A stretch of 64,000 nucleotides of DNA from a virus, in the IMG/VR virus record IMGVR_UViG_3300044511_000233, positions 14,751 to 78,750 of that record. The stretch is one strand, 5' to 3'. Shown in pieces: positions 2 to 64,000 of the stretch (position 1 is its first letter; the number at the start of each line of letters is the position of its first letter). Under the pieces are notes generated by a model that ran no database searches, was not told where the DNA came from, and saw nothing but the letters and a program-made list of their open reading frames with translations. Both the position numbers and the translations under genes were made by a program.

Positions 2-2440
2 CGCGGGTTGAGCGTGATTCCGGTGCTGGGTAAGCGGCCAGTTCAGAAAGAGTGGGCAAAGTGGGCTCTTGAGCTGCCTTCGGTTGAAGAGCGAGAACAG
101 TGGCTGCAGACGTTTAGTGAGAAGAAGTATGGAATAGGGCTCGTCTGTGGTCCTCAAAGCGGCATATGCGCGGTCGATATCGACAGCGATGAAGATCGTG
201 TGATCGGCGCCGTCGAGCGTGTTCTGCCACGGTCGGGATGGGAGCGCGTCGGCAAGAAGGGCAAAGTGTTGATCTATAAGTTCCGTGATCCACGGAACTT
301 TACTGTGAAGGGAGTCGATGGGAAGGGCATCATCGACGTTTTGTCGTTGAAGCGACAGTTCATCTTGCCCCCATCGATCCATCCCGACACTGGTAAGCCG
401 TATTGGGCTAATCGAGACCTACTCGAGATGCTTGATGGGGCTGAGGGGGAGTTGGCGGACCTTCCGAATGGGCTTGATCTGGTTCTGAAAGCTGCTCTGA
501 AGGATGTTGGTATTGAGACATCGTCAACGTCGGGCAGGGTGGTTGTCACCAATTACGTTAGTTCTGGGAATCGCGACAACACGTTGTTGCGGATATGTGG
601 TCTCTATTCGAAGGAGATTGTCGACGGAAACTGGACGTTTTTACAGCAAGTGGAGCGGCTGGAAGGTTGGGTCGAGGGTTTTGTTGAGAAGATTTGGGGT
701 GATGAGCTGACAATTGGTCATGCTGTTGAGCGACTTGTCTATTGTCTTCGGCGGGACGTCTTTGAGCACGGAAAAACGCTGCCGGTGGGGTGGGACGAAG
801 GATTGAGTGATGAGGCCAGAGAGGCGTTTGGGCTCGGAGAGTTCGATGACAGTCGGCGCCGGTGGTCTTTCAAAGAGATTCTGGATTGGTTCAACGGCGA
901 AGTGGCGGCCGGGGGGGGCGTCGATGTAAATGATGAGAGTCAGATGATGACTCTCGTCGATAAGGCCCTGGTTAAAATCGCCGGTAATACGGATCTGGTG
1001 TCGACCGAAGAAGACAGGTTGCTGAAGGTCATATCGGATACCGCACGAGGCGCATTTCGGCTTGTTTCTCTTCGAAAGCGTGTGAAAGAGCTGCGACGGG
1101 GGATTGTTGTTGGTGAAACCCATGCCGAGGTTGCCGAAGCTATCCTGAAACTGATTGAGGAGAACGGTGAAGTCCGGTTTTGTAACGGAAAATTCTGGCA
1201 GTGGGTGGGGTCGCACTGGCTTAGTCTAAACGATAGCGATCTCTTGAATCTGATAATAATGAACTCGAAGGGAATGCAGTCAGCAAAAAAGAACAGTGAC
1301 TATAATGGCGTGTTGCGCACGATGCAGGCGACTCGAACAACAGAGCTCATTCGAGTTACGATCAAGGGCGTCAATTTCGTCAATGGGTTTCTTGATGAAG
1401 ATCTAGTGCTTCGGGCTCATGATCGGGACTACGGATGCACCTATTGCTTGAATTATGCCTATGAACCAGGGTTAGCGAGTGAGTGTTTGCTATGGCAGAA
1501 CATGCTTCGCGACTTTTGGGGAGAGGATGAGGACTATCAAGACAAAATTCAGGCGCTTCGAGAGGCAATGGCTGCGACGATTTTCGGGGTCGCGACACGC
1601 TACCAACGTGCATTCATCTTCAAAGGCGTTGCTGGGGCTGGTAAAACCAGAATATTGCATCTGATGCGAGCGTTGATGCCCCCTGGAACCAGTAGTGCAG
1701 TTCCACCGGAGAAGTTTGCTGAGAAATTTGAGAGCACCGAGCTCGCTGGTAAGCTTTTGAACATGGCGGGAGAGCTCTCGAAGCAGAAAATCCCCGGCAA
1801 ACACTTCAAAACTATTATTGAGGGTGGTGAGCTGCAGGGTCAATTCAAAAATAAACCTGTTTTCAGCTATACACCCCTCTGTGCTCACTGGTTTGGATCA
1901 AATCACTGGCCGAAGGTGGACGATCCGGACGGAGGATGGCTCCGTAGGTGGCTCTTTTTCAGGTTTGATCGACCATTGCCGCCGGAGAAAAGGATTGAAA
2001 ATGTTGAAGAGATGATCCTTGGGCAAGAGCGTGAAGCCATTATGGCTTGGGCGGTTCAAGGAATTGTGAGTTTGAAGCTTAATCGAGAATATCGTTTATC
2101 GAAATCTCATTACGAATGCATCGAGGAGATGAATAGGAACGGTGACTCTGTGGGTTTTTGGTGGGGCCATTTTGTGGAGTCCGGGCGACTCAGGTACGGA
2201 ATGGCCCAACATACGCAGGTTACCCCGAAATTCACTTCAGTAGATCATCTCTTCCGCGCATATCGGCTCTTTTGCTCCAGCACGGCAGGTGCCTCGCATG
2301 TGGGGCTTCAGACCTTCATCGAGCGCATGGTGGAAGTAGGGGTGAAGAAGGGATTCTCACCGATACGTCAGGAAGGTGGGGGGATTACCGCGTTCTTGTT
2401 TCTCACACTGTGTGCGGAAACCCCGGTGGCGTCTCCATAA
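2..2440 (+). CDS. Primase-helicase: bifunctional prim-pol N-terminal domain plus D5/P4-type SF3 helicase (5' end outside window)
   Basis: N-terminal IGLVCG...AVDID...ILPPSIHPDTGKPYW prim-pol motifs; C-terminal Walker A GVAGAGKT, LAGKLLNMAGE, GSNHWP, WLRRW; frame open to the window edge. Confidence 0.9.
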   Translation, partial: RGLSVIPVLGKRPVQKEWAKWALELPSVEEREQWLQTFSEKKYGIGLVCGPQSGICAVDIDSDEDRVIGAVERVLPRSGWERVGKKGKVLIYKFRDPRNFTVKGVDGKGIIDVLSLKRQFILPPSIHPDTGKPYWANRDLLEMLDGAEGELADLPNGLDLVLKAALKDVGIETSSTSGRVVVTNYVSSGNRDNTLLRICGLYSKEIVDGNWTFLQQVERLEGWVEGFVEKIWGDELTIGHAVERLVYCLRRDVFEHGKTLPVGWDEGLSDEAREAFGLGEFDDSRRRWSFKEILDWFNGEVAAGGGVDVNDESQMMTLVDKALVKIAGNTDLVSTEEDRLLKVISDTARGAFRLVSLRKRVKELRRGIVVGETHAEVAEAILKLIEENGEVRFCNGKFWQWVGSHWLSLNDSDLLNLIIMNSKGMQSAKKNSDYNGVLRTMQATRTTELIRVTIKGVNFVNGFLDEDLVLRAHDRDYGCTYCLNYAYEPGLASECLLWQNMLRDFWGEDEDYQDKIQALREAMAATIFGVATRYQRAFIFKGVAGAGKTRILHLMRALMPPGTSSAVPPEKFAEKFESTELAGKLLNMAGELSKQKIPGKHFKTIIEGGELQGQFKNKPVFSYTPLCAHWFGSNHWPKVDDPDGGWLRRWLFFRFDRPLPPEKRIENVEEMILGQEREAIMAWAVQGIVSLKLNREYRLSKSHYECIEEMNRNGDSVGFWWGHFVESGRLRYGMAQHTQVTPKFTSVDHLFRAYRLFCSSTAGASHVGLQTFIERMVEVGVKKGFSPIRQEGGGITAFLFLTLCAETPVASP

Positions 2441-18623: not shown

Positions 18624-19518
18624 AGTCCGTTTGAGAATGTCGTTCAATGAGCGATCCTTCGCAAGATGAGGCCGCCCATTGCGACGTGGATCATGGCTTT
18701 TGAGACGTCGATGCGCTTTTCATAGTCTCGCACGAGGCGCCGCCAGCGGGTCATCCAGCCGAAGGTTCGCTCGACGACCCAGCGTCGCGGCAGAACCTTG
18801 AAGCCCGGATCGGCGTCGATCCTTCGCACGATCTCTACGACGAACTCCTTGAACGCCGCCTTGTCCATGAGTTTTCTGCGATCATAGGCGCCGTCGGCGA
18901 AGAGATGTTTGACCCATGGCCAGCGCTTGCGGATGGCGTCGAGAATATGCTGCGCGCCCGCGGAGTCGGAAACATCCGCTGTCGTCAGATTGACCATGAG
19001 CAGCCGTCCGTCCGTATCCACTGCAATGTGGCGCTTGCGCCCTTTGATTTTCTTGCCGGCGTCGTAACCCCGCGCTCGCGCCGCCGGGGCTTTGACCGAT
19101 TGGCTGTCGATGACGCCAGCCGAGGGGCTCGCCTCGCGGCCGGCGCGTTCCCGGTCAATCATCAGCGCCACGTCGTGGATGGTCTCGAACAGAAAGCGGC
19201 GCATGAAGCGGCGAAACCACCAGTAGACGGTTTGCCAGGGCGGGAAATCCTTGGGCAGCATACGCCAGCCACAGCCGGCGCGGGCGATGTAGCGGATGGC
19301 GTTCAAAACCTCGCGTGGGTCGACCGAGGGCCTGCGCCCTTTGCGCGCCGGCGAGGGCAGGAACGGCTCAACCCGCTCCCACTCCTCATCGGTCAAATCC
19401 GTCGGGTAACGTTTGGTTTTCTTCTCAATGGCGGCCATCTTGGCGCGATTCGCTCGGGTCCACATCCCGAGCTTGAATCACGACCCTCACTCCGTCGCAA
19501 CCATTCTCAAACGGTCAC
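18623..19518 (-). mobile_element. IS5-family insertion sequence, 896 bp
   Basis: Terminal IRs GAGTCCGTTTGAGAATG / CATTCTCAAACGGTCAC (15/17); TA on both flanks; single transposase. Confidence 0.93.
18644..19465 (-). CDS. IS5-family DDE transposase
   Basis: YPTDLTDEEW, GCGWRMLPKDFPPWQTVY, IDSQSVK, ADGAY, RWVVERTFGW. Confidence 0.95.
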   Translation of the reverse strand: MWTRANRAKMAAIEKKTKRYPTDLTDEEWERVEPFLPSPARKGRRPSVDPREVLNAIRYIARAGCGWRMLPKDFPPWQTVYWWFRRFMRRFLFETIHDVALMIDRERAGREASPSAGVIDSQSVKAPAARARGYDAGKKIKGRKRHIAVDTDGRLLMVNLTTADVSDSAGAQHILDAIRKRWPWVKHLFADGAYDRRKLMDKAAFKEFVVEIVRRIDADPGFKVLPRRWVVERTFGWMTRWRRLVRDYEKRIDVSKAMIHVAMGGLILRRIAH

Positions 19519-19634
19519 TAAGATCAGAACTGTTGCTTCAACCCGCCGTGGTGTTCGACGACCGCGACCGGTCGGTTACCATGTGGCGATCGGAAGGCAT
19601 TCGATGTTTGCAGGTGGCCCCGGGGAACTTTTGA
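19519..19634 (+). pseudogene. 3' fragment of the same Pnkp-type phosphatase
   Basis: VFDDRDRSVTMWRSEGIRCLQVAPGNF* matches the T4 Pnkp C-terminal DDR..V.MWR..G..C.QVA.G.F pattern. Confidence 0.8.
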
Positions 19635-20200
19635 TGAGCACACTATCAGACTGGACCAACGTGATTGAGCAGATTTCTGCAAAGAATGAGGCTGAGCGCC
19701 GCAAGCGCGTCTATGCATTTCGAAGACAGACGGATGAGAAGGATTTTTCGAAGGAGAGCGACGAAGACCTGCTCGAGCTGTTCGTTCGTGCGACAAATGG
19801 GGTAGGTTGTTTTCATATTGACGAGCGCAATGTGTGGGAGATCGCTCACGGAAAGATTCGTGACGAGTTGATGCGGCGGCTGCGTAAGAAGATTGTCTGT
19901 GTAGTTATGGGCAACGACTATCCCGATGCCGTTTTTGAAGATCCGACCGATGCTGAAGCTTATTGCGTTAAGGAGCGTGCGGCGAGTATCGAGCACCTGC
20001 GGCAGCAATACGGATCACAATACTTAGATACCAATTGTGCAACTTGCCAAGTTTGCGCTTCACCAAGGGTAGGGGGCACTATAATAGGGTTCCCTGCACA
20101 TGGCTCGCGTAAACGAAGCATGGATAGTGTGGTAGGGAGTTATATATGGACAAGGAGTTTCTTGAGATCCTCGCCGACGTCAGTGAGGATCTTGCAATAG
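19634..20200 (+). CDS. Hypothetical protein (3' end may be read-through into an inserted AT-rich segment)
   Basis: TGATG coupling to the phosphatase stop; codon pattern changes after ~20030. Confidence 0.55.
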   Translation: MSTLSDWTNVIEQISAKNEAERRKRVYAFRRQTDEKDFSKESDEDLLELFVRATNGVGCFHIDERNVWEIAHGKIRDELMRRLRKKIVCVVMGNDYPDAVFEDPTDAEAYCVKERAASIEHLRQQYGSQYLDTNCATCQVCASPRVGGTIIGFPAHGSRKRSMDSVVGSYIWTRSFLRSSPTSVRILQ

Positions 20201-20355: not shown

Positions 20356-20423
20356 GTCATTGACTCCGTCATACGCACTTGATTAGCTCATTCTGATCAA
20401 TGCTGATTGATTGGGTGATAGGT

Positions 20424-20762
20424 ATGACGAGTATAAGATTAGTTAGACTGTCGAAAATATATCATAAGCTGGGGGTTAGTAGAAAGGTAGTATATTATTG
20501 GGCCAGACATGGGTTGTTGCCTGGGGCCATTAATCACAACGGGGTTTGGTTGATGAATCTCGATGTGTTTAATGACTGGGTCTCACAGCAGACTCAACCT
20601 ATTGAGGTAACCCCATGCTCTTTCAACGTAAGGACAGCCCATTCTGGCATACGAAACTCTCGAACGGAAAGCGGGTCTCGACCGGCATCCCCTGCAGTCG
20701 ATCTCTTCGAGAAAGAGCTCTGCAGGCTGCAGCAGAAAAAGAACGAGAGCTGCAAGAGCTGA
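20424..20762 (+). CDS. Excisionase-like HTH protein
   Basis: KLGVSRKVVYYWAR.G.LPG.....G.W MerR/Xis pattern; overlaps the int start. Confidence 0.7.
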   Translation: MTSIRLVRLSKIYHKLGVSRKVVYYWARHGLLPGAINHNGVWLMNLDVFNDWVSQQTQPIEVTPCSFNVRTAHSGIRNSRTESGSRPASPAVDLFEKELCRLQQKKNESCKS

Positions 20763-21679
20763 TACAGGCGGCTAGGAGCCTGACGCTCAAACAGGCGACT
20801 ACGTTATTTCTTCGCGACTCGGCAGATACGCTCAAAGCGTCGACGCTACACCATTACGCGAAGAAATTGGCGGTCATCATTGATGTGATGAATTCGCCGA
20901 CGATCGCCGAGATCAATCTCGAGTGGTTGAAGGGGTTTGTGCGTGAACGACGCCGGCAGACGTCGGACATCCAGATCCGGCGCGAGATCACAGCCCTGTC
21001 TTCGCTCATGGAATATGCGATTGATCGGGAATTGGAGGGGGCGCCGGAGGTGAACCCTTGCCGGCTGTTCCGGAAGAAAGGGTTGAAGAAGCCCGTCAAG
21101 AAACCGCGGTGGTTGACGGTCGCACAGGTTCGGGCGCTGCTCCATGCGGCAGCGAGGCTGCCATCGATTATCTCACGGCGGTTTTGGGTCGCTTTCATCA
21201 CGCTTGTCCTCGAGACCGGCCTTCGCCATGAGGAGGCGCTTGGGCTGCTGTGGGATGAAGTCGATCTCAGCCGGCGGGTGATCTTCCTGCCGGCTGATCG
21301 TGAGAAGGCTGGCCGCGGTCGGATCGTGCCTCTCTCCGACACAGCGATGGACACACTCTTGCACGTTCCTCGAGACCCGCGCATCAATTACGTCTTCGTT
21401 AATCCGAAGACGCGGACCCGCTATAACTCGATCGGGAAGGGATGGGTTCAATTGCGTATTAAGGCTGGGGTTCCTCATGCGAGAATTCATGATTTGCGTC
21501 ATACGTTTGCGTCCTGGACCCGTCAGTCCGGAATGTCGCGCGAGGATCGAAAAGACGTCCTCGGGCACCTTGATGACACGACCCACGGAGGATACGCCAA
21601 TGCGTCAATCGAGTCTCTGGTAGAGACTGTGAACAAGCACAGCCCAAGCACATTGCTCTCACAGGAGCAGGAGTTGTAA
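20615..21679 (+). CDS. int: Tyrosine recombinase (phage integrase)
   Basis: TGLRHEE, K, HDLRH, LGH, Y catalytic residues. Confidence 0.95.
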   Translation: MLFQRKDSPFWHTKLSNGKRVSTGIPCSRSLRERALQAAAEKERELQELIQAARSLTLKQATTLFLRDSADTLKASTLHHYAKKLAVIIDVMNSPTIAEINLEWLKGFVRERRRQTSDIQIRREITALSSLMEYAIDRELEGAPEVNPCRLFRKKGLKKPVKKPRWLTVAQVRALLHAAARLPSIISRRFWVAFITLVLETGLRHEEALGLLWDEVDLSRRVIFLPADREKAGRGRIVPLSDTAMDTLLHVPRDPRINYVFVNPKTRTRYNSIGKGWVQLRIKAGVPHARIHDLRHTFASWTRQSGMSREDRKDVLGHLDDTTHGGYANASIESLVETVNKHSPSTLLSQEQEL

Positions 21680-21715
21680 GGTAGCTCACCGATGAAGAGT
21701 GAGGGAATTCAAAGA

Positions 21716-21754
21716 CGGGGTATGGCGCAGTCTGGTAGCGCGGAAGTTTTGGGT
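21716..21754 (+). other. attP core: 5' half of tRNA-Pro(TGG), ending at the anticodon loop
   Basis: CGGGGTA-TG-GCGC-AGTCTGGTA-GCGC-G-GAAGT-TTTGGGT, then non-tRNA sequence; 36 bp after the int stop. Confidence 0.85.
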
Positions 21755-21881
21755 TTTTCTGAACCTGCAACTCTAACCTCCTGAAATCTCACTTCCAACC
21801 TCATCGGCATCTTGGACTTTGTGGGTCCTGTGTGGGTGTTTTGTTCCACACAGTTCCTGCACACACGCCGCGGGCCAGTCG

Positions 21882-22331
21882 ATGTCGCTTCACTTCGATG
21901 AAATTAAACGTCTCCTCATTGAGGAGAGTCTATCTCAATCTGAGATCGTAAAACGCTACTCTCACACGCTGTCGGCATGGCAGGTAAAGCGGCTTATTCA
22001 AGAAGCGTATGAGGACGTCAAAAAGACGCGTCCTGAGTTTCAGATGCGTCGCGCCCCCAGCGGTTTCAAACCCCTGGGTGCTACGAAAACGTTGAGTCAG
22101 ATGCACCTAGCTATAGGTGTTAGGCTCAACAATCATCGGCGAGTTGAGATGGATATGCAGCCGATGGAGTATTGCTCAAAGTTTAATTTTTCCAACCATA
22201 TTAGGTTGAGAAAAATGGAGACTGGGCAATACGATTTCTCCTTATCTGAGATGCAACGGATCTCGGAAATTGTTGGCATTCCAATGGAGGAGCTGGTGAC
22301 ACCATTTATCAGAAACGCATATGCTTGTTGA
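21882..22331 (+). CDS. Cro/CI-type (XRE) HTH regulator
   Basis: IGVRL...R...LRKMETGQYDFSLSEMQRISEIVGIPMEEL. Confidence 0.75.
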   Translation: MSLHFDEIKRLLIEESLSQSEIVKRYSHTLSAWQVKRLIQEAYEDVKKTRPEFQMRRAPSGFKPLGATKTLSQMHLAIGVRLNNHRRVEMDMQPMEYCSKFNFSNHIRLRKMETGQYDFSLSEMQRISEIVGIPMEELVTPFIRNAYAC

Positions 22332-22537: not shown

Positions 22538-23092
22538 ATGGAACGCTTTGGCCTGCACATTGATGGGGATCTTCTGTTCCTGCATCAGCAGGATGAGGCT
22601 CGGTGTTTGACACCGGGCCTCGCCGGGCTCCCCAGCCCCTACTCGAGCCCGAAACGCGCTCGATGTCCGCACCGGATCGAGCCCAAGGCTGGGGAGGTGG
22701 GCCACGCCCCCAGTCCCTTCGACCCTGTTCCTGATGGGGGTGCCTATTGGGTAAGGGGCGACGTGCGCCGAGCGGCGCAGCTCTGTGCCCCGACGCAGGG
22801 GACCGGAGTCATTCGCCCGCTTTGGGCTTGGAGTGTCAAAGATCTGCTATCGGAGCTCCATCTAACCAATATCGCACCGCTGATCCTCACCGCTTATGAG
22901 GGGTCGCATCTGCGCTCGATCGCGCGGCTGCTCGAGCTCCCCCGTGTTCGAACGCTCATTTTCTGTGGGGACCTGCAGCCGGCGGGGGCCGAGGCTGCGT
23001 CTATCCCTGAGATTGAGGGAGATCCCCGTGCGGCGGGCGCCGCGGTGTTGTGGGATTTCGTGCAACGCACAGTCGAAGAGGCTCGGAAGTGA
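22538..23092 (+). CDS. Hypothetical protein
   Basis: Fills the operon gap; GTGA coupling to the next gene. Confidence 0.55.
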   Translation: MERFGLHIDGDLLFLHQQDEARCLTPGLAGLPSPYSSPKRARCPHRIEPKAGEVGHAPSPFDPVPDGGAYWVRGDVRRAAQLCAPTQGTGVIRPLWAWSVKDLLSELHLTNIAPLILTAYEGSHLRSIARLLELPRVRTLIFCGDLQPAGAEAASIPEIEGDPRAAGAAVLWDFVQRTVEEARK

Positions 23093-23607
23093 ACCGTATA
23101 TCAATCGAACATCTTCGGGAACGCCTAGATTATGATCCTGAAACAGGGGTATTGAGGTGGAAGATTTACCGCAGTCCTAAATACCCAGCAGGATCTGTCG
23201 CTAATGGGTATTTAAGAAAACGAGATAATCAGTATGTTTTTAATATAAATGATACTACGATTCTGGGTAAGGAGTTATGTTTTGCTGTATTTTACGGTAA
23301 ATGGCCGTGTAGACGTGTAATTCAAAAGGATGGCGATCCTTGTAATTTTAAGATTATAAATCTTATGGAGGAGACAGTTCGGGATTGGGAGGCGCGGCAG
23401 AGACGTCCTGTAGGTAAAAGTGGATACAGGGGGGTCACTAAACAACCTAACGGAAAGTATCGTGTATATGTTTGCAAAGGGTCAAAACTTATTTATGGGG
23501 GTTGTTATTCGATAGCAGAGAAAGCCGCACAGGTTTATGACGAGCTTGCGATTAAATATTTGGGGTCATCTGCTATAACTAATCGTAGTCTTGGATTGCT
23601 GAAATGA
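23089..23607 (+). CDS. HNH-AP2 endonuclease-like protein, degenerate
   Basis: LDYDPETG, SGYRGV, EKAAQVYD AP2 motifs; HNH core VIQKDGDPCN lacks the His; low GC. Confidence 0.8.
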   Translation: MNRISIEHLRERLDYDPETGVLRWKIYRSPKYPAGSVANGYLRKRDNQYVFNINDTTILGKELCFAVFYGKWPCRRVIQKDGDPCNFKIINLMEETVRDWEARQRRPVGKSGYRGVTKQPNGKYRVYVCKGSKLIYGGCYSIAEKAAQVYDELAIKYLGSSAITNRSLGLLK

Positions 23608-63305: not shown

Positions 63306-63999
63306 CACCAACCTTGCCTAGTTTGAAGCGGGTCTTGAGAGACGTAGCCACCACATCAGGAAAACGTTGAAGAACATAATATGCTATTAGAGGCGCGACA
63401 AGTGGTCTCTGCACTGGCCGACCGAAATTTTTCAGTTTATCAGCGACCTCTGCCTCCATGAGGCGAGCAAGAAGACCTTTATCCGAATCTCTTGCTCCGA
63501 GCCCGACTAGTTTGTTTGCCGAGAGACCCGATTCATCTTTCAAAAACGGAAAGCTCGTCAGATTGATTCCCGTCTTCTTGGAGCCCAGCATTGCGATTGT
63601 AATCTTACCCACTTTTCCGGGTTCGTCTGTTGGTATGAAAGAGATCGTGGGACGTAGCACATTCTGCAGAAAGGGAGCAAAGCTCGTCTGCATTTTCTCG
63701 AGCAACTCACCAGTATGTACGAAGTAGGTCGTCAGTCCCTGCTTGTTGCGGATCGTACGCGTCGAGAGGGCAGGCCATGACATGGTCAGATCAGGGTTCG
63801 ACACGCCAACAGGTGAGAATGCCGATTTGAAGGCGTCGCCACTCTCATATGAAGGCATTTGAATGCGAAGAGGGGTCTTACCGTCAGTATTGGATTTCAA
63901 ATGGAAGAAAAACTGGAGCATCTGACGCGCATAAATCTCGATGTCGTTCCTGACATGGTCCTGAACCGCAGCAAGTCGCTCGACCGTTTTCTCTTTAGC
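63298..63999 (-). CDS. Putative neck/tail-completion protein (5' end outside window)
   Basis: Frame open to the window edge; W.ALS..TI..K and RPL..P motifs. Confidence 0.55.
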   Translation of the reverse strand, partial: AKEKTVERLAAVQDHVRNDIEIYARQMLQFFFHLKSNTDGKTPLRIQMPSYESGDAFKSAFSPVGVSNPDLTMSWPALSTRTIRNKQGLTTYFVHTGELLEKMQTSFAPFLQNVLRPTISFIPTDEPGKVGKITIAMLGSKKTGINLTSFPFLKDESGLSANKLVGLGARDSDKGLLARLMEAEVADKLKNFGRPVQRPLVAPLIAYYVLQRFPDVVATSLKTRFKLGKVGDE

Positions 64000-64000
64000 A

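Follow-up and report, generated by a model that had tools for sequence, protein, structure and literature searches.

The Attachment Site of a Rhizobiales Phage Carries the Front Half of a Host tRNA-Pro(UGG) Gene

Front Half of a tRNA Gene Behind the Phage Integrase Gene

The analyzed DNA is a stretch of 64,000 nucleotides (hereafter, the window) that comprises bases 14751–78750 of a single 78,750-bp virus record (IMGVR_UViG_3300044511_000233). It contains a gene for a tyrosine integrase (int) and, directly downstream, a phage attachment site (attP) that reproduces the front half of a bacterial tRNA-Pro(UGG) gene. The features of this region, all on the plus strand and in window coordinates, are as follows.

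20400–20762 (+): candidate xis, an open reading frame (ORF) for an excisionase-like helix-turn-helix (HTH) protein, overlapping the int start (Pfam HTH_17, E 9.6e-6, 26.2 bits; phrog_66, E 5.7e-4)
20615–21679 (+): tyrosine integrase gene, 354 aa, with the stop codon TAA at 21677–21679 (PF00589, E 6e-24; phrog_1, E 6e-53)
21653–21682 (+): candidate promoter TTGCTC-N18-TAAGGT, with hexamers at 21653–21658 and 21677–21682, the −10 hexamer containing the int stop codon
21680–21715 (+): spacer of 36 nt between the int stop codon and the tRNA half, which would become the 5′ leader of the rebuilt tRNA
21716–21754 (+): attP identity block, bases 1–38 (39 nt) of the host tRNA-Pro(UGG)
21743–21759 (+): predicted core, consisting of GAAGT, the 7-nt loop TTTGGGT (the putative overlap and crossover region), and a degenerate right arm TTTTC; identity with the bacterial site (attB) ends at 21754
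21755–21881 (+): P′ arm, with direct repeats TGTGGGT at 21820–21826 and 21831–21837 and an 8-bp inverted repeat at 21828–21835 and 21846–21853
21882–22331 (+): first gene to the right of attP, 149 aa, probably of the XRE/Cro-C1 HTH type, which would lie directly downstream of the displaced host promoter after integration

The first-pass annotation of the window had recognized a clean 5′ half of tRNA-Pro(TGG) located 36 nt after the int stop codon, ending at the anticodon loop and lacking a 3′ half in the window, and this description holds in full. An exact copy of the 39-mer is found on six Rhizobiales/Hyphomicrobiales/Xanthobacteraceae contigs of metagenome-assembled genomes (MAGs), and on each of them it begins a complete tRNA-Pro(TGG) gene. 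Alignment of attP with these host loci gives 39/39 identity from tRNA position +1 to loop base 38, with unrelated flanks on both sides; the block runs from the putative crossover region exactly to one mature tRNA end. It is composed of the acceptor strand CGGGGTA, the dinucleotide TG, the D-arm GCGC-AGTCTGGTA-GCGC with A14 and G18G19, a single G, the stem strand GAAGT (21743–21747), and the loop TTTGGGT (21748–21754) with the anticodon TGG at 21750–21752.

When the full host tRNA-Pro was compared with the phage genome using BLAST, the 39-nt half was the only match, and no 3′ half was found. ARAGORN detects no tRNA, whether applied to the window or to all 78,750 bp of the genome, and Rfam yields only chance-level matches around attP (e.g., IS009, E 0.17, at 21700–21781) and none to a tRNA model. 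The presence of the tRNA half is confirmed, far beyond chance. We also considered the block as the reverse complement of the 3′ half of another tRNA; this is ruled out, as its 4-bp stem with the 9-nt AGTCTGGTA loop is a D-arm, not a T-arm.

The int product scores 85 bits with PF00589 (cut-off 27 bits), as a tyrosine recombinase or phage integrase should. Residues R204, K231, H292, R295, H318, and Y327, which form the catalytic set, are invariant in the alignment of 19 family sequences (A2).

Integrated Relatives, Empty Sites, and a Second Free Phage

The junctions expected upon integration, i.e., attL composed of the host promoter, the 5′ half, and phage DNA from 21755 onward, and attR composed of int and the full tRNA, were both found in two integrated relatives, G378 and G535. 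The sequence identity of the block is seen directly in the phage, and the attL/attR/attB geometry is seen directly in relatives. G378 is probably Methylocystis sp. ATCC 49242, a natural lysogen. Its attR consists of int (63% identical), a spacer also of 36 nt, and a complete tRNA-Pro(TGG) at 835066–835142, followed by tRNA-Arg(TCT) and tRNA-Arg(TCG). The 5′ half alone, at C6:858854–858892, marks attL, 23.75 kb upstream of attR on the same strand; a host gene and the probable native promoter block precede this half, and DNA homologous to window positions 21755–21960, including the start of the orthologue of ORF 21882–22331, follows it. Synteny between this 23.75-kb element and the phage extends to either side of attP, with xis–int shared on one side and ~5 kb, with the HTH gene and a helicase gene, on the other.

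In the Methylocystis congeners whose loci were examined, the site is empty: the same flank gene is directly followed by an intact tRNA-Pro and, in the six loci that are long enough, by two tRNA-Arg genes. In G535 (int 42% identical), the int frame ends 5 nt before the full tRNA-Pro, and the 5′ half, together with unrelated DNA, is found on another contig. In both relatives, the element is bordered by a 5′ fragment on its upstream side and by an intact tDNA of like orientation on its downstream side. The expectation that related elements use tRNA-Pro as attB is thus borne out by the two insertions and by the empty attB of the congeners.

The attL host flank of G535 (L027, ~1540–1650, minus strand) is homologous over ~100 nt to the int 3′ end at attR (L022, ~1403–1520, minus strand). 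This stretch includes TTGCCC-17-TATACG at attL and TTGCCG-17-TATAAA at attR. Either the element captured a host promoter region, or attL abuts the remnant of an older element.

In another IMG/VR phage, L146 (73 kb, int 47% identical), the 5′ half comes after int and a tRNA is absent; this phage likewise represents the free form and shares the attP. The int protein search of IMG/VR viral contigs gave no relative, and the search of GenBank phages with the 2-kb att region gave no match. The scan of metagenomes with the int alignment yielded, among the matches listed, integrases with 25–39% identity. The closest integrases are P0002 (86% identical), P0003 (84%), and P0004 (64%).

Copy Number of the Host tRNA and the Proposed Mechanism

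Reading of the CCA codon requires the UGG isoacceptor of tRNA-Pro. BLAST with the full tRNA gene reveals one full tRNA-Pro(TGG) each in G378, G535, G004, and G005. Weaker proline matches in the lysogens G378 and G535 comprise one GGG isoacceptor each (ARAGORN) and an additional 71%-identical match in each that was left unassigned, and the CGG isoacceptor was identified in the non-lysogen genomes G004 and G005. Because tRNA-Pro(UGG) is single-copy and its native promoter is left at attL, the data support the view that expression of the rebuilt tRNA in lysogens must depend on element DNA, and we infer a dependence of the host on an element promoter.

We consider it highly probable, taking the explanation as a whole, that 21716–21754 is the attP core by which the phage would integrate into the single host tRNA-Pro(UGG) gene, with the rebuilt tRNA relying on phage transcription. 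Here, the integrase would recombine attP with the host gene, most likely by crossover in the 7-nt anticodon loop, between the anticodon-stem arms. Since the phage would contribute the 5′ part of the tRNA gene, co-directional with int, the native promoter and the dead 5′ half would stay at attL, facing the phage HTH gene. At attR, 36 nt past the int stop codon, the phage would supply the 5′ half and the host the 3′ half of a rebuilt, working tRNA. As the rebuilt gene would be severed from its native promoter, its transcription would have to come from phage DNA; the preferred source is a promoter within the final ~65 nt of int whose −10 hexamer overlaps the stop codon, and the alternative source is read-through from xis–int followed by RNase P processing.

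Transcription of the Rebuilt tRNA

The alignment of seven empty Methylocystis attB sites and three attL flanks shows that the block TTGTGA-N14-TGn-TAGCGA(A) is kept 24–52 nt upstream of tRNA-Pro in otherwise variable DNA; loci L130, L131, L132, L136, L137, L139, L140, and L019 contain it in the stretch 24–81 nt upstream. This is probably the native tRNA-Pro promoter, of the extended −10 type. In the element-borne arm of G829 (see below), the identical TAGCGAAATG likewise stands 44 nt from the tRNA and opens with an apparent int stop codon (TAG).

Scored by position weight matrix (PWM) over the 200 nt that precede the tRNA start, the candidate promoter TTGCTC-N18-TAAGGT on the phage side ranks first in the window and ties for first in G378; at the homologous place in L146, the best PWM site is TTCTCC-17-TAGAGT. 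In all three, the candidate overlaps the int stop codon. Nucleotide identity between the window and G378 is 90–100% over 21636–21682 and 48% right after TAAGGT, compared to ~60% for the whole gene, the conservation being judged on relatives that are 42–63% identical in int. In G535, a better-looking TTGCCG-17-TATAAA is situated further upstream, inside the longer int frame. The motif TTCAA(A/C)G just before tRNA position +1 is kept in the window, G378, G651, G829, and L146, and is absent from the host attB flanks. We give the exact site TTGCTC-N18-TAAGGT somewhat less than an even chance of being the start used for the rebuilt tRNA; read-through of xis–int is the more doubtful of the two, and the remaining probability belongs to another element-borne start.

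The read-through explanation retains the same att geometry and dispenses with a dedicated promoter: the tRNA would be released by RNase P and 3′ processing from the xis–int transcript or another upstream prophage transcript. It accords with the chance-level score of the candidate promoter and with the lack of a terminator-like site between int and the tRNA, as well as with the merely 5 nt that separate the int frame from tRNA position +1 in G535; one RNA-library contig also covers the tRNA 5′ half, int, and ~1.2 kb beyond at a single depth. An essential, highly used tRNA would then hang on transcription of the int operon, which is normally low in lysogens (lambda-type int regulation). Two further facts speak against read-through: in the int-less ~1-kb remnants of G651 and G829, a tRNA whose expression is required still has the final ~60 nt of the left arm in front of it, and the patch of 90–100% identity stops exactly at TAAGGT, which is suggestive of a DNA-level signal.

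RNA-seq libraries of the natural lysogen contain the junction, with contigs unbroken from the tRNA 5′ half through int. The depth of RNA contigs in runs X2–X4 is 127–525 at both element ends versus 8–27 (in one case, 66) in the interior. These data are assembled unitigs, broken at the repeated 39–43-nt block and devoid of strand, end, and local-depth information, and hence provide only a hint.

Position of the Crossover

In attB, a perfect inverted repeat GAAGT/ACTTC surrounds the 7-nt anticodon loop. The right arm of attP is degenerate, and so are those of the relatives (ATTAC, TTCGC, TTTCC, TTACC). The identity block always starts at tRNA position +1 and ends at base 38 in the window, at base 39 in G378, and at about base 41–42 in G535. 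Strand exchange would accordingly be placed within the anticodon loop.

The sole difference seen inside any identity block is in G651 (L141, 1482 vs. 2528), where TATGGCG (G9) in the displaced half stands against TATAGCG (A9) in the rebuilt tRNA. A crossover near the 5′ end of the tRNA, in the acceptor stem, with the rest of the 39-nt block carried for another reason, e.g., Int binding, would fit this case if the element had G9, as the attL half has G9, like the window phage, and the attR tRNA has A9, which is usual in the genus. Such a crossover is improbable: in every element, the block ends in or just after the anticodon loop, where the symmetric stem offers paired core sites; bases 9–38 would not be needed to rebuild the gene if the exchange occurred at bases 1–8; and a single substitution in a dead half that is free of selection can easily have arisen afterwards, as the G9 of G651 may have.

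That the tRNA half is a passive relic (host DNA from an aberrant excision or a decayed phage tRNA gene) rather than a working attachment site is hardly credible. The searches turned up no lysogen of precisely this phage, which would favor a relic. Against it, the block is exact, with tRNA position +1 and the anticodon loop as its precise bounds, and the integrase gene 36 nt before it is intact and keeps the full catalytic set; the same layout returns in the independent phage L146, and relatives are integrated at exactly this place, with matching attL and attR.

Several observations weigh against integration via the anticodon loop with a phage-driven tRNA. No lysogen of this very phage was found, and there was no int match with E ≤ 1e-50 in 401 sampled genomes from the family of MAG G001 (Xanthobacteraceae-type; one of the exact-match MAGs, its family being one candidate host family), so that integration of this phage is extrapolated from relatives that are 42–63% identical in int. 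A single copy of the target is not certain in every candidate host, as G001 (MAG DATMEW01) has two near-identical tRNA-Pro(TGG) loci (L001, 7370–7446; L004, 6136–6212), located on separate contigs with nearly identical flanks on both sides; this may reflect strain redundancy within the bin or a real duplication. The G9/A9 difference in G651 is not predicted by a strict anticodon-loop crossover unless the dead half mutated later.

The remaining points concern the promoter. The first-pass annotation had proposed a sigma70-like TTGCTC-N18-TAAGGT at the int 3′ end; its positions were confirmed, its place is conserved, and its sequence score is at chance level. It has 6/12 matches to the sigma-70 consensus and is not called by the consensus scan, and a PWM score at least as high occurs in 20% of shuffles and in 17% of the 100-nt tiles of the window. 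The hexamers lie within codons of the conserved C-terminus (..STLLSQ..L*), and conservation of these codons could explain part of the hexamer conservation. Finally, the RNA contigs cannot show a start site or decide between promoter and read-through.

Excisionase Candidate, P′ Arm, and First Right-Hand Gene

ORF 20400–20762, upstream of int and overlapping it, is a candidate excisionase gene: its HTH_17 match of 26.2 bits is just below the cut-off of 27 bits, and phrog_66 is described as "excisionase and transcriptional regulator."

On the other side of attP, the repeats of the P′ arm are candidate arm-type or operator sites, and the block CTGTGTGG..GTTTTGTTCCACACAGTTCC of this arm is kept beside attL in G378. 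The IHF-like site that had been suggested at ~21774–21788 was not recovered: the consensus of the integration host factor (IHF), WATCARNNNNTTR, has no match within 21600–21900, and its four matches in the window, versus 2.8 expected, are all elsewhere. Nor was the IHF consensus WATCAANNNNTTR, the host-factor site of lambda-type systems, found in an arm. The RNA fold of 21716–21885 is ordinary (z −0.84).

The product of ORF 21882–22331 shows sub-threshold HTH_3 matches at residues 109–138 in three orthologues (E 0.002–0.03), and an Atlas lead points to Cro/C1 HTH regulators (0.88). The orthologue adjoins attL in G378, and the N-terminal part survives in the G651 and G829 remnants. No terminator-like site was found on the plus strand between the tRNA half and this ORF. 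A further and rather unlikely extension of the mechanism combines a switch and an anchor. As no terminator was detected after the dead half, the strong tRNA-Pro promoter orphaned at attL would put ORF 21882–22331 under high, constitutive expression, limited to the integrated state; at the same time, the only tRNA-Pro(UGG) of the host would be tied to the int end of the element, and imprecise loss of that end would be counter-selected. If so, the int-less ~1-kb remnants in G651 and G829, which keep just the two ends, would be the footprint of that selection.

Distribution of Front-Half Elements at tRNA-Pro(UGG)

In a sample of 401 genomes from the family of G378, the tRNA pattern was found in 180, and a second copy of the 5′ half in 7/180. 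The 5′ half was confirmed upstream of an intact tRNA in six of these seven (G378, G535, G651, G588, G524, and G569), the seventh being G617.

Two elements lack int: G651 (L141, 1482–2604; G651:C2; ~1.0 kb) and G829 (L142, 1459–2423; G829:C1; ~0.9 kb), the latter coming from the genus sample and not from the family sample. Between the 5′ half and the full tRNA-Pro, these mini-elements contain the P′ arm, a truncated homologue of ORF 21882–22331, and ~60 nt from the end of the left arm. They represent decay products or else cassettes without an integrase.

Elements of a second, unrelated kind use the same 5′ half in G588 (69 kb), G524 (46 kb), and G569 (6.2 kb):

G588:C22:29499-98546 (L151, L152): second-kind element
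G524:C3:7278020-7324270 (L153, L154): second-kind element
G569:C12:27572-33886 (L155): second-kind element

Their integrase gene (27–31% identity over the C-terminal part) is located on the P′ side and runs on the opposite strand, and the arm adjoining the rebuilt tRNA contains repeated ACGGGACT-type motifs. The IMG/VR sequences L149 and L147 probably belong to this second kind as well, to judge only from similar flanking motifs. The 5′ side of tRNA-Pro(UGG) is a recurrent target in one bacterial family, with at least two integrase arrangements.

The int family itself is not uniform in polarity. In G666 (38% identical; L023, G666:C63, 1501–2740), int is convergent to a complete tRNA-Gly(CCC), in the classical 3′-side arrangement. 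Since G666 is classical and the phage is reversed, one integrase family holds both polarities. In two other family members with 47–48% identity, L020 (G517) and L021 (G716), the 1.5 kb around int is free of tRNA genes; in L021, TAATATATAAT follows the int stop codon.

Phage Genome

The products encoded in the phage genome include a primase, a DNA polymerase, a ligase, a thymidylate synthase, an SbcCD-like nuclease, a J-type tail protein, a tail fibre, and an endolysin. The ends of the 78,750-bp record share a ~151-bp repeat (window 63850–64000 vs. genome bases 1–151), of which the first 126 positions are exact and several mismatches follow. Given this gene content and the end repeat, the record is a complete or nearly complete tailed phage (79 kb) in its free form; the repeat could be a terminal one, an error-containing overlap from circular assembly, or a mixture of variants. 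The phage is temperate, and its hosts are most likely Rhizobiales (Hyphomicrobiales) bacteria.

Just upstream of xis, two long ORFs overlap on opposite strands: 18644–19465 (−), which matches transposase PHROGs (phrog_4716, E 1.6e-18), and 18905–20200 (+), with DUF7227. At most one of them is likely to be real, and the pair (18644–20200) may represent an IS-like insertion adjoining the integration module. To the right of the module and just ahead of the helicase gene, 23050–23607 (+) codes for an HNH endonuclease (phrog_99, E 5e-33) that also matches the AP2 domain weakly.

Significance and Comparison With Known Systems

Taken together, the free phage, the second free phage, two integrated relatives, empty sites in congeners, and decayed remnants make a documented front-half case. 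The predicted hosts of this uncultured 79-kb phage are Rhizobiales/Hyphomicrobiales whose tRNA-Pro(UGG) begins with the 39-mer. G378, as a cultured lysogen (probably Methylocystis sp. ATCC 49242), is suited for asking how an essential single-copy tRNA is expressed behind phage DNA, and also what the orphaned host promoter does to the prophage. Finders of prophages and islands that are limited to 3′ fragments will miss or misplace front-half elements.

An anticodon-loop class of tRNA attachment sites, with P22 and HP1 as examples, was reportedly distinguished by Williams in 2002. The phage resembles this class in having a tyrosine integrase, a block that ends at the loop, flanked by a symmetric stem in attB, and reaches exactly to an end of the mature tRNA, so that the gene is rebuilt; unlike in that class, it is the 5′ end (+1) rather than the 3′ end that the block reaches, and int is co-directional with the tRNA, not convergent. 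The module is also similar to that of lambda-type phages in the order of an xis-like HTH gene, int, and attP directly downstream, with candidate arm-site repeats in the flanks. Here, however, the target is a tRNA gene rather than an intergenic site, the arm sites are candidates, and no IHF consensus was found in them.

Integrative elements that reverse the usual orientation of the tRNA target are said to have been described by Zhao and Williams in 2002, as far as the title of that work and the text citing it tell. Compared on this basis, those elements and the phage have in common that the 5′ part is carried, that a 5′ fragment is displaced upstream, and that the element must supply the upstream signals; what differs here is a free 79-kb tailed phage, the target tRNA-Pro(UGG), and int lying directly upstream and co-directional. 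Recombination with the 5′-distal part of a tRNA gene is called "considerably less frequent" in a later paper (PMC6563490, citing Zhao and Williams, 2002). The configuration filter of Islander accepts a 5′ fragment upstream of an intact tDNA (Hudson, Lau and Williams, 2015; PMC4383910). The same 5′-fragment configuration as in Islander/TIGER islands is present at tRNA-Pro(UGG) in G378, G535, G651, G829, G588, G524, and G569, although those islands were mapped in the integrated state, whereas the window comes from a free phage that is circular or terminally redundant. The arrangement is therefore a mirror image of the usual tRNA sites, rare but already described, and not a new mechanism.

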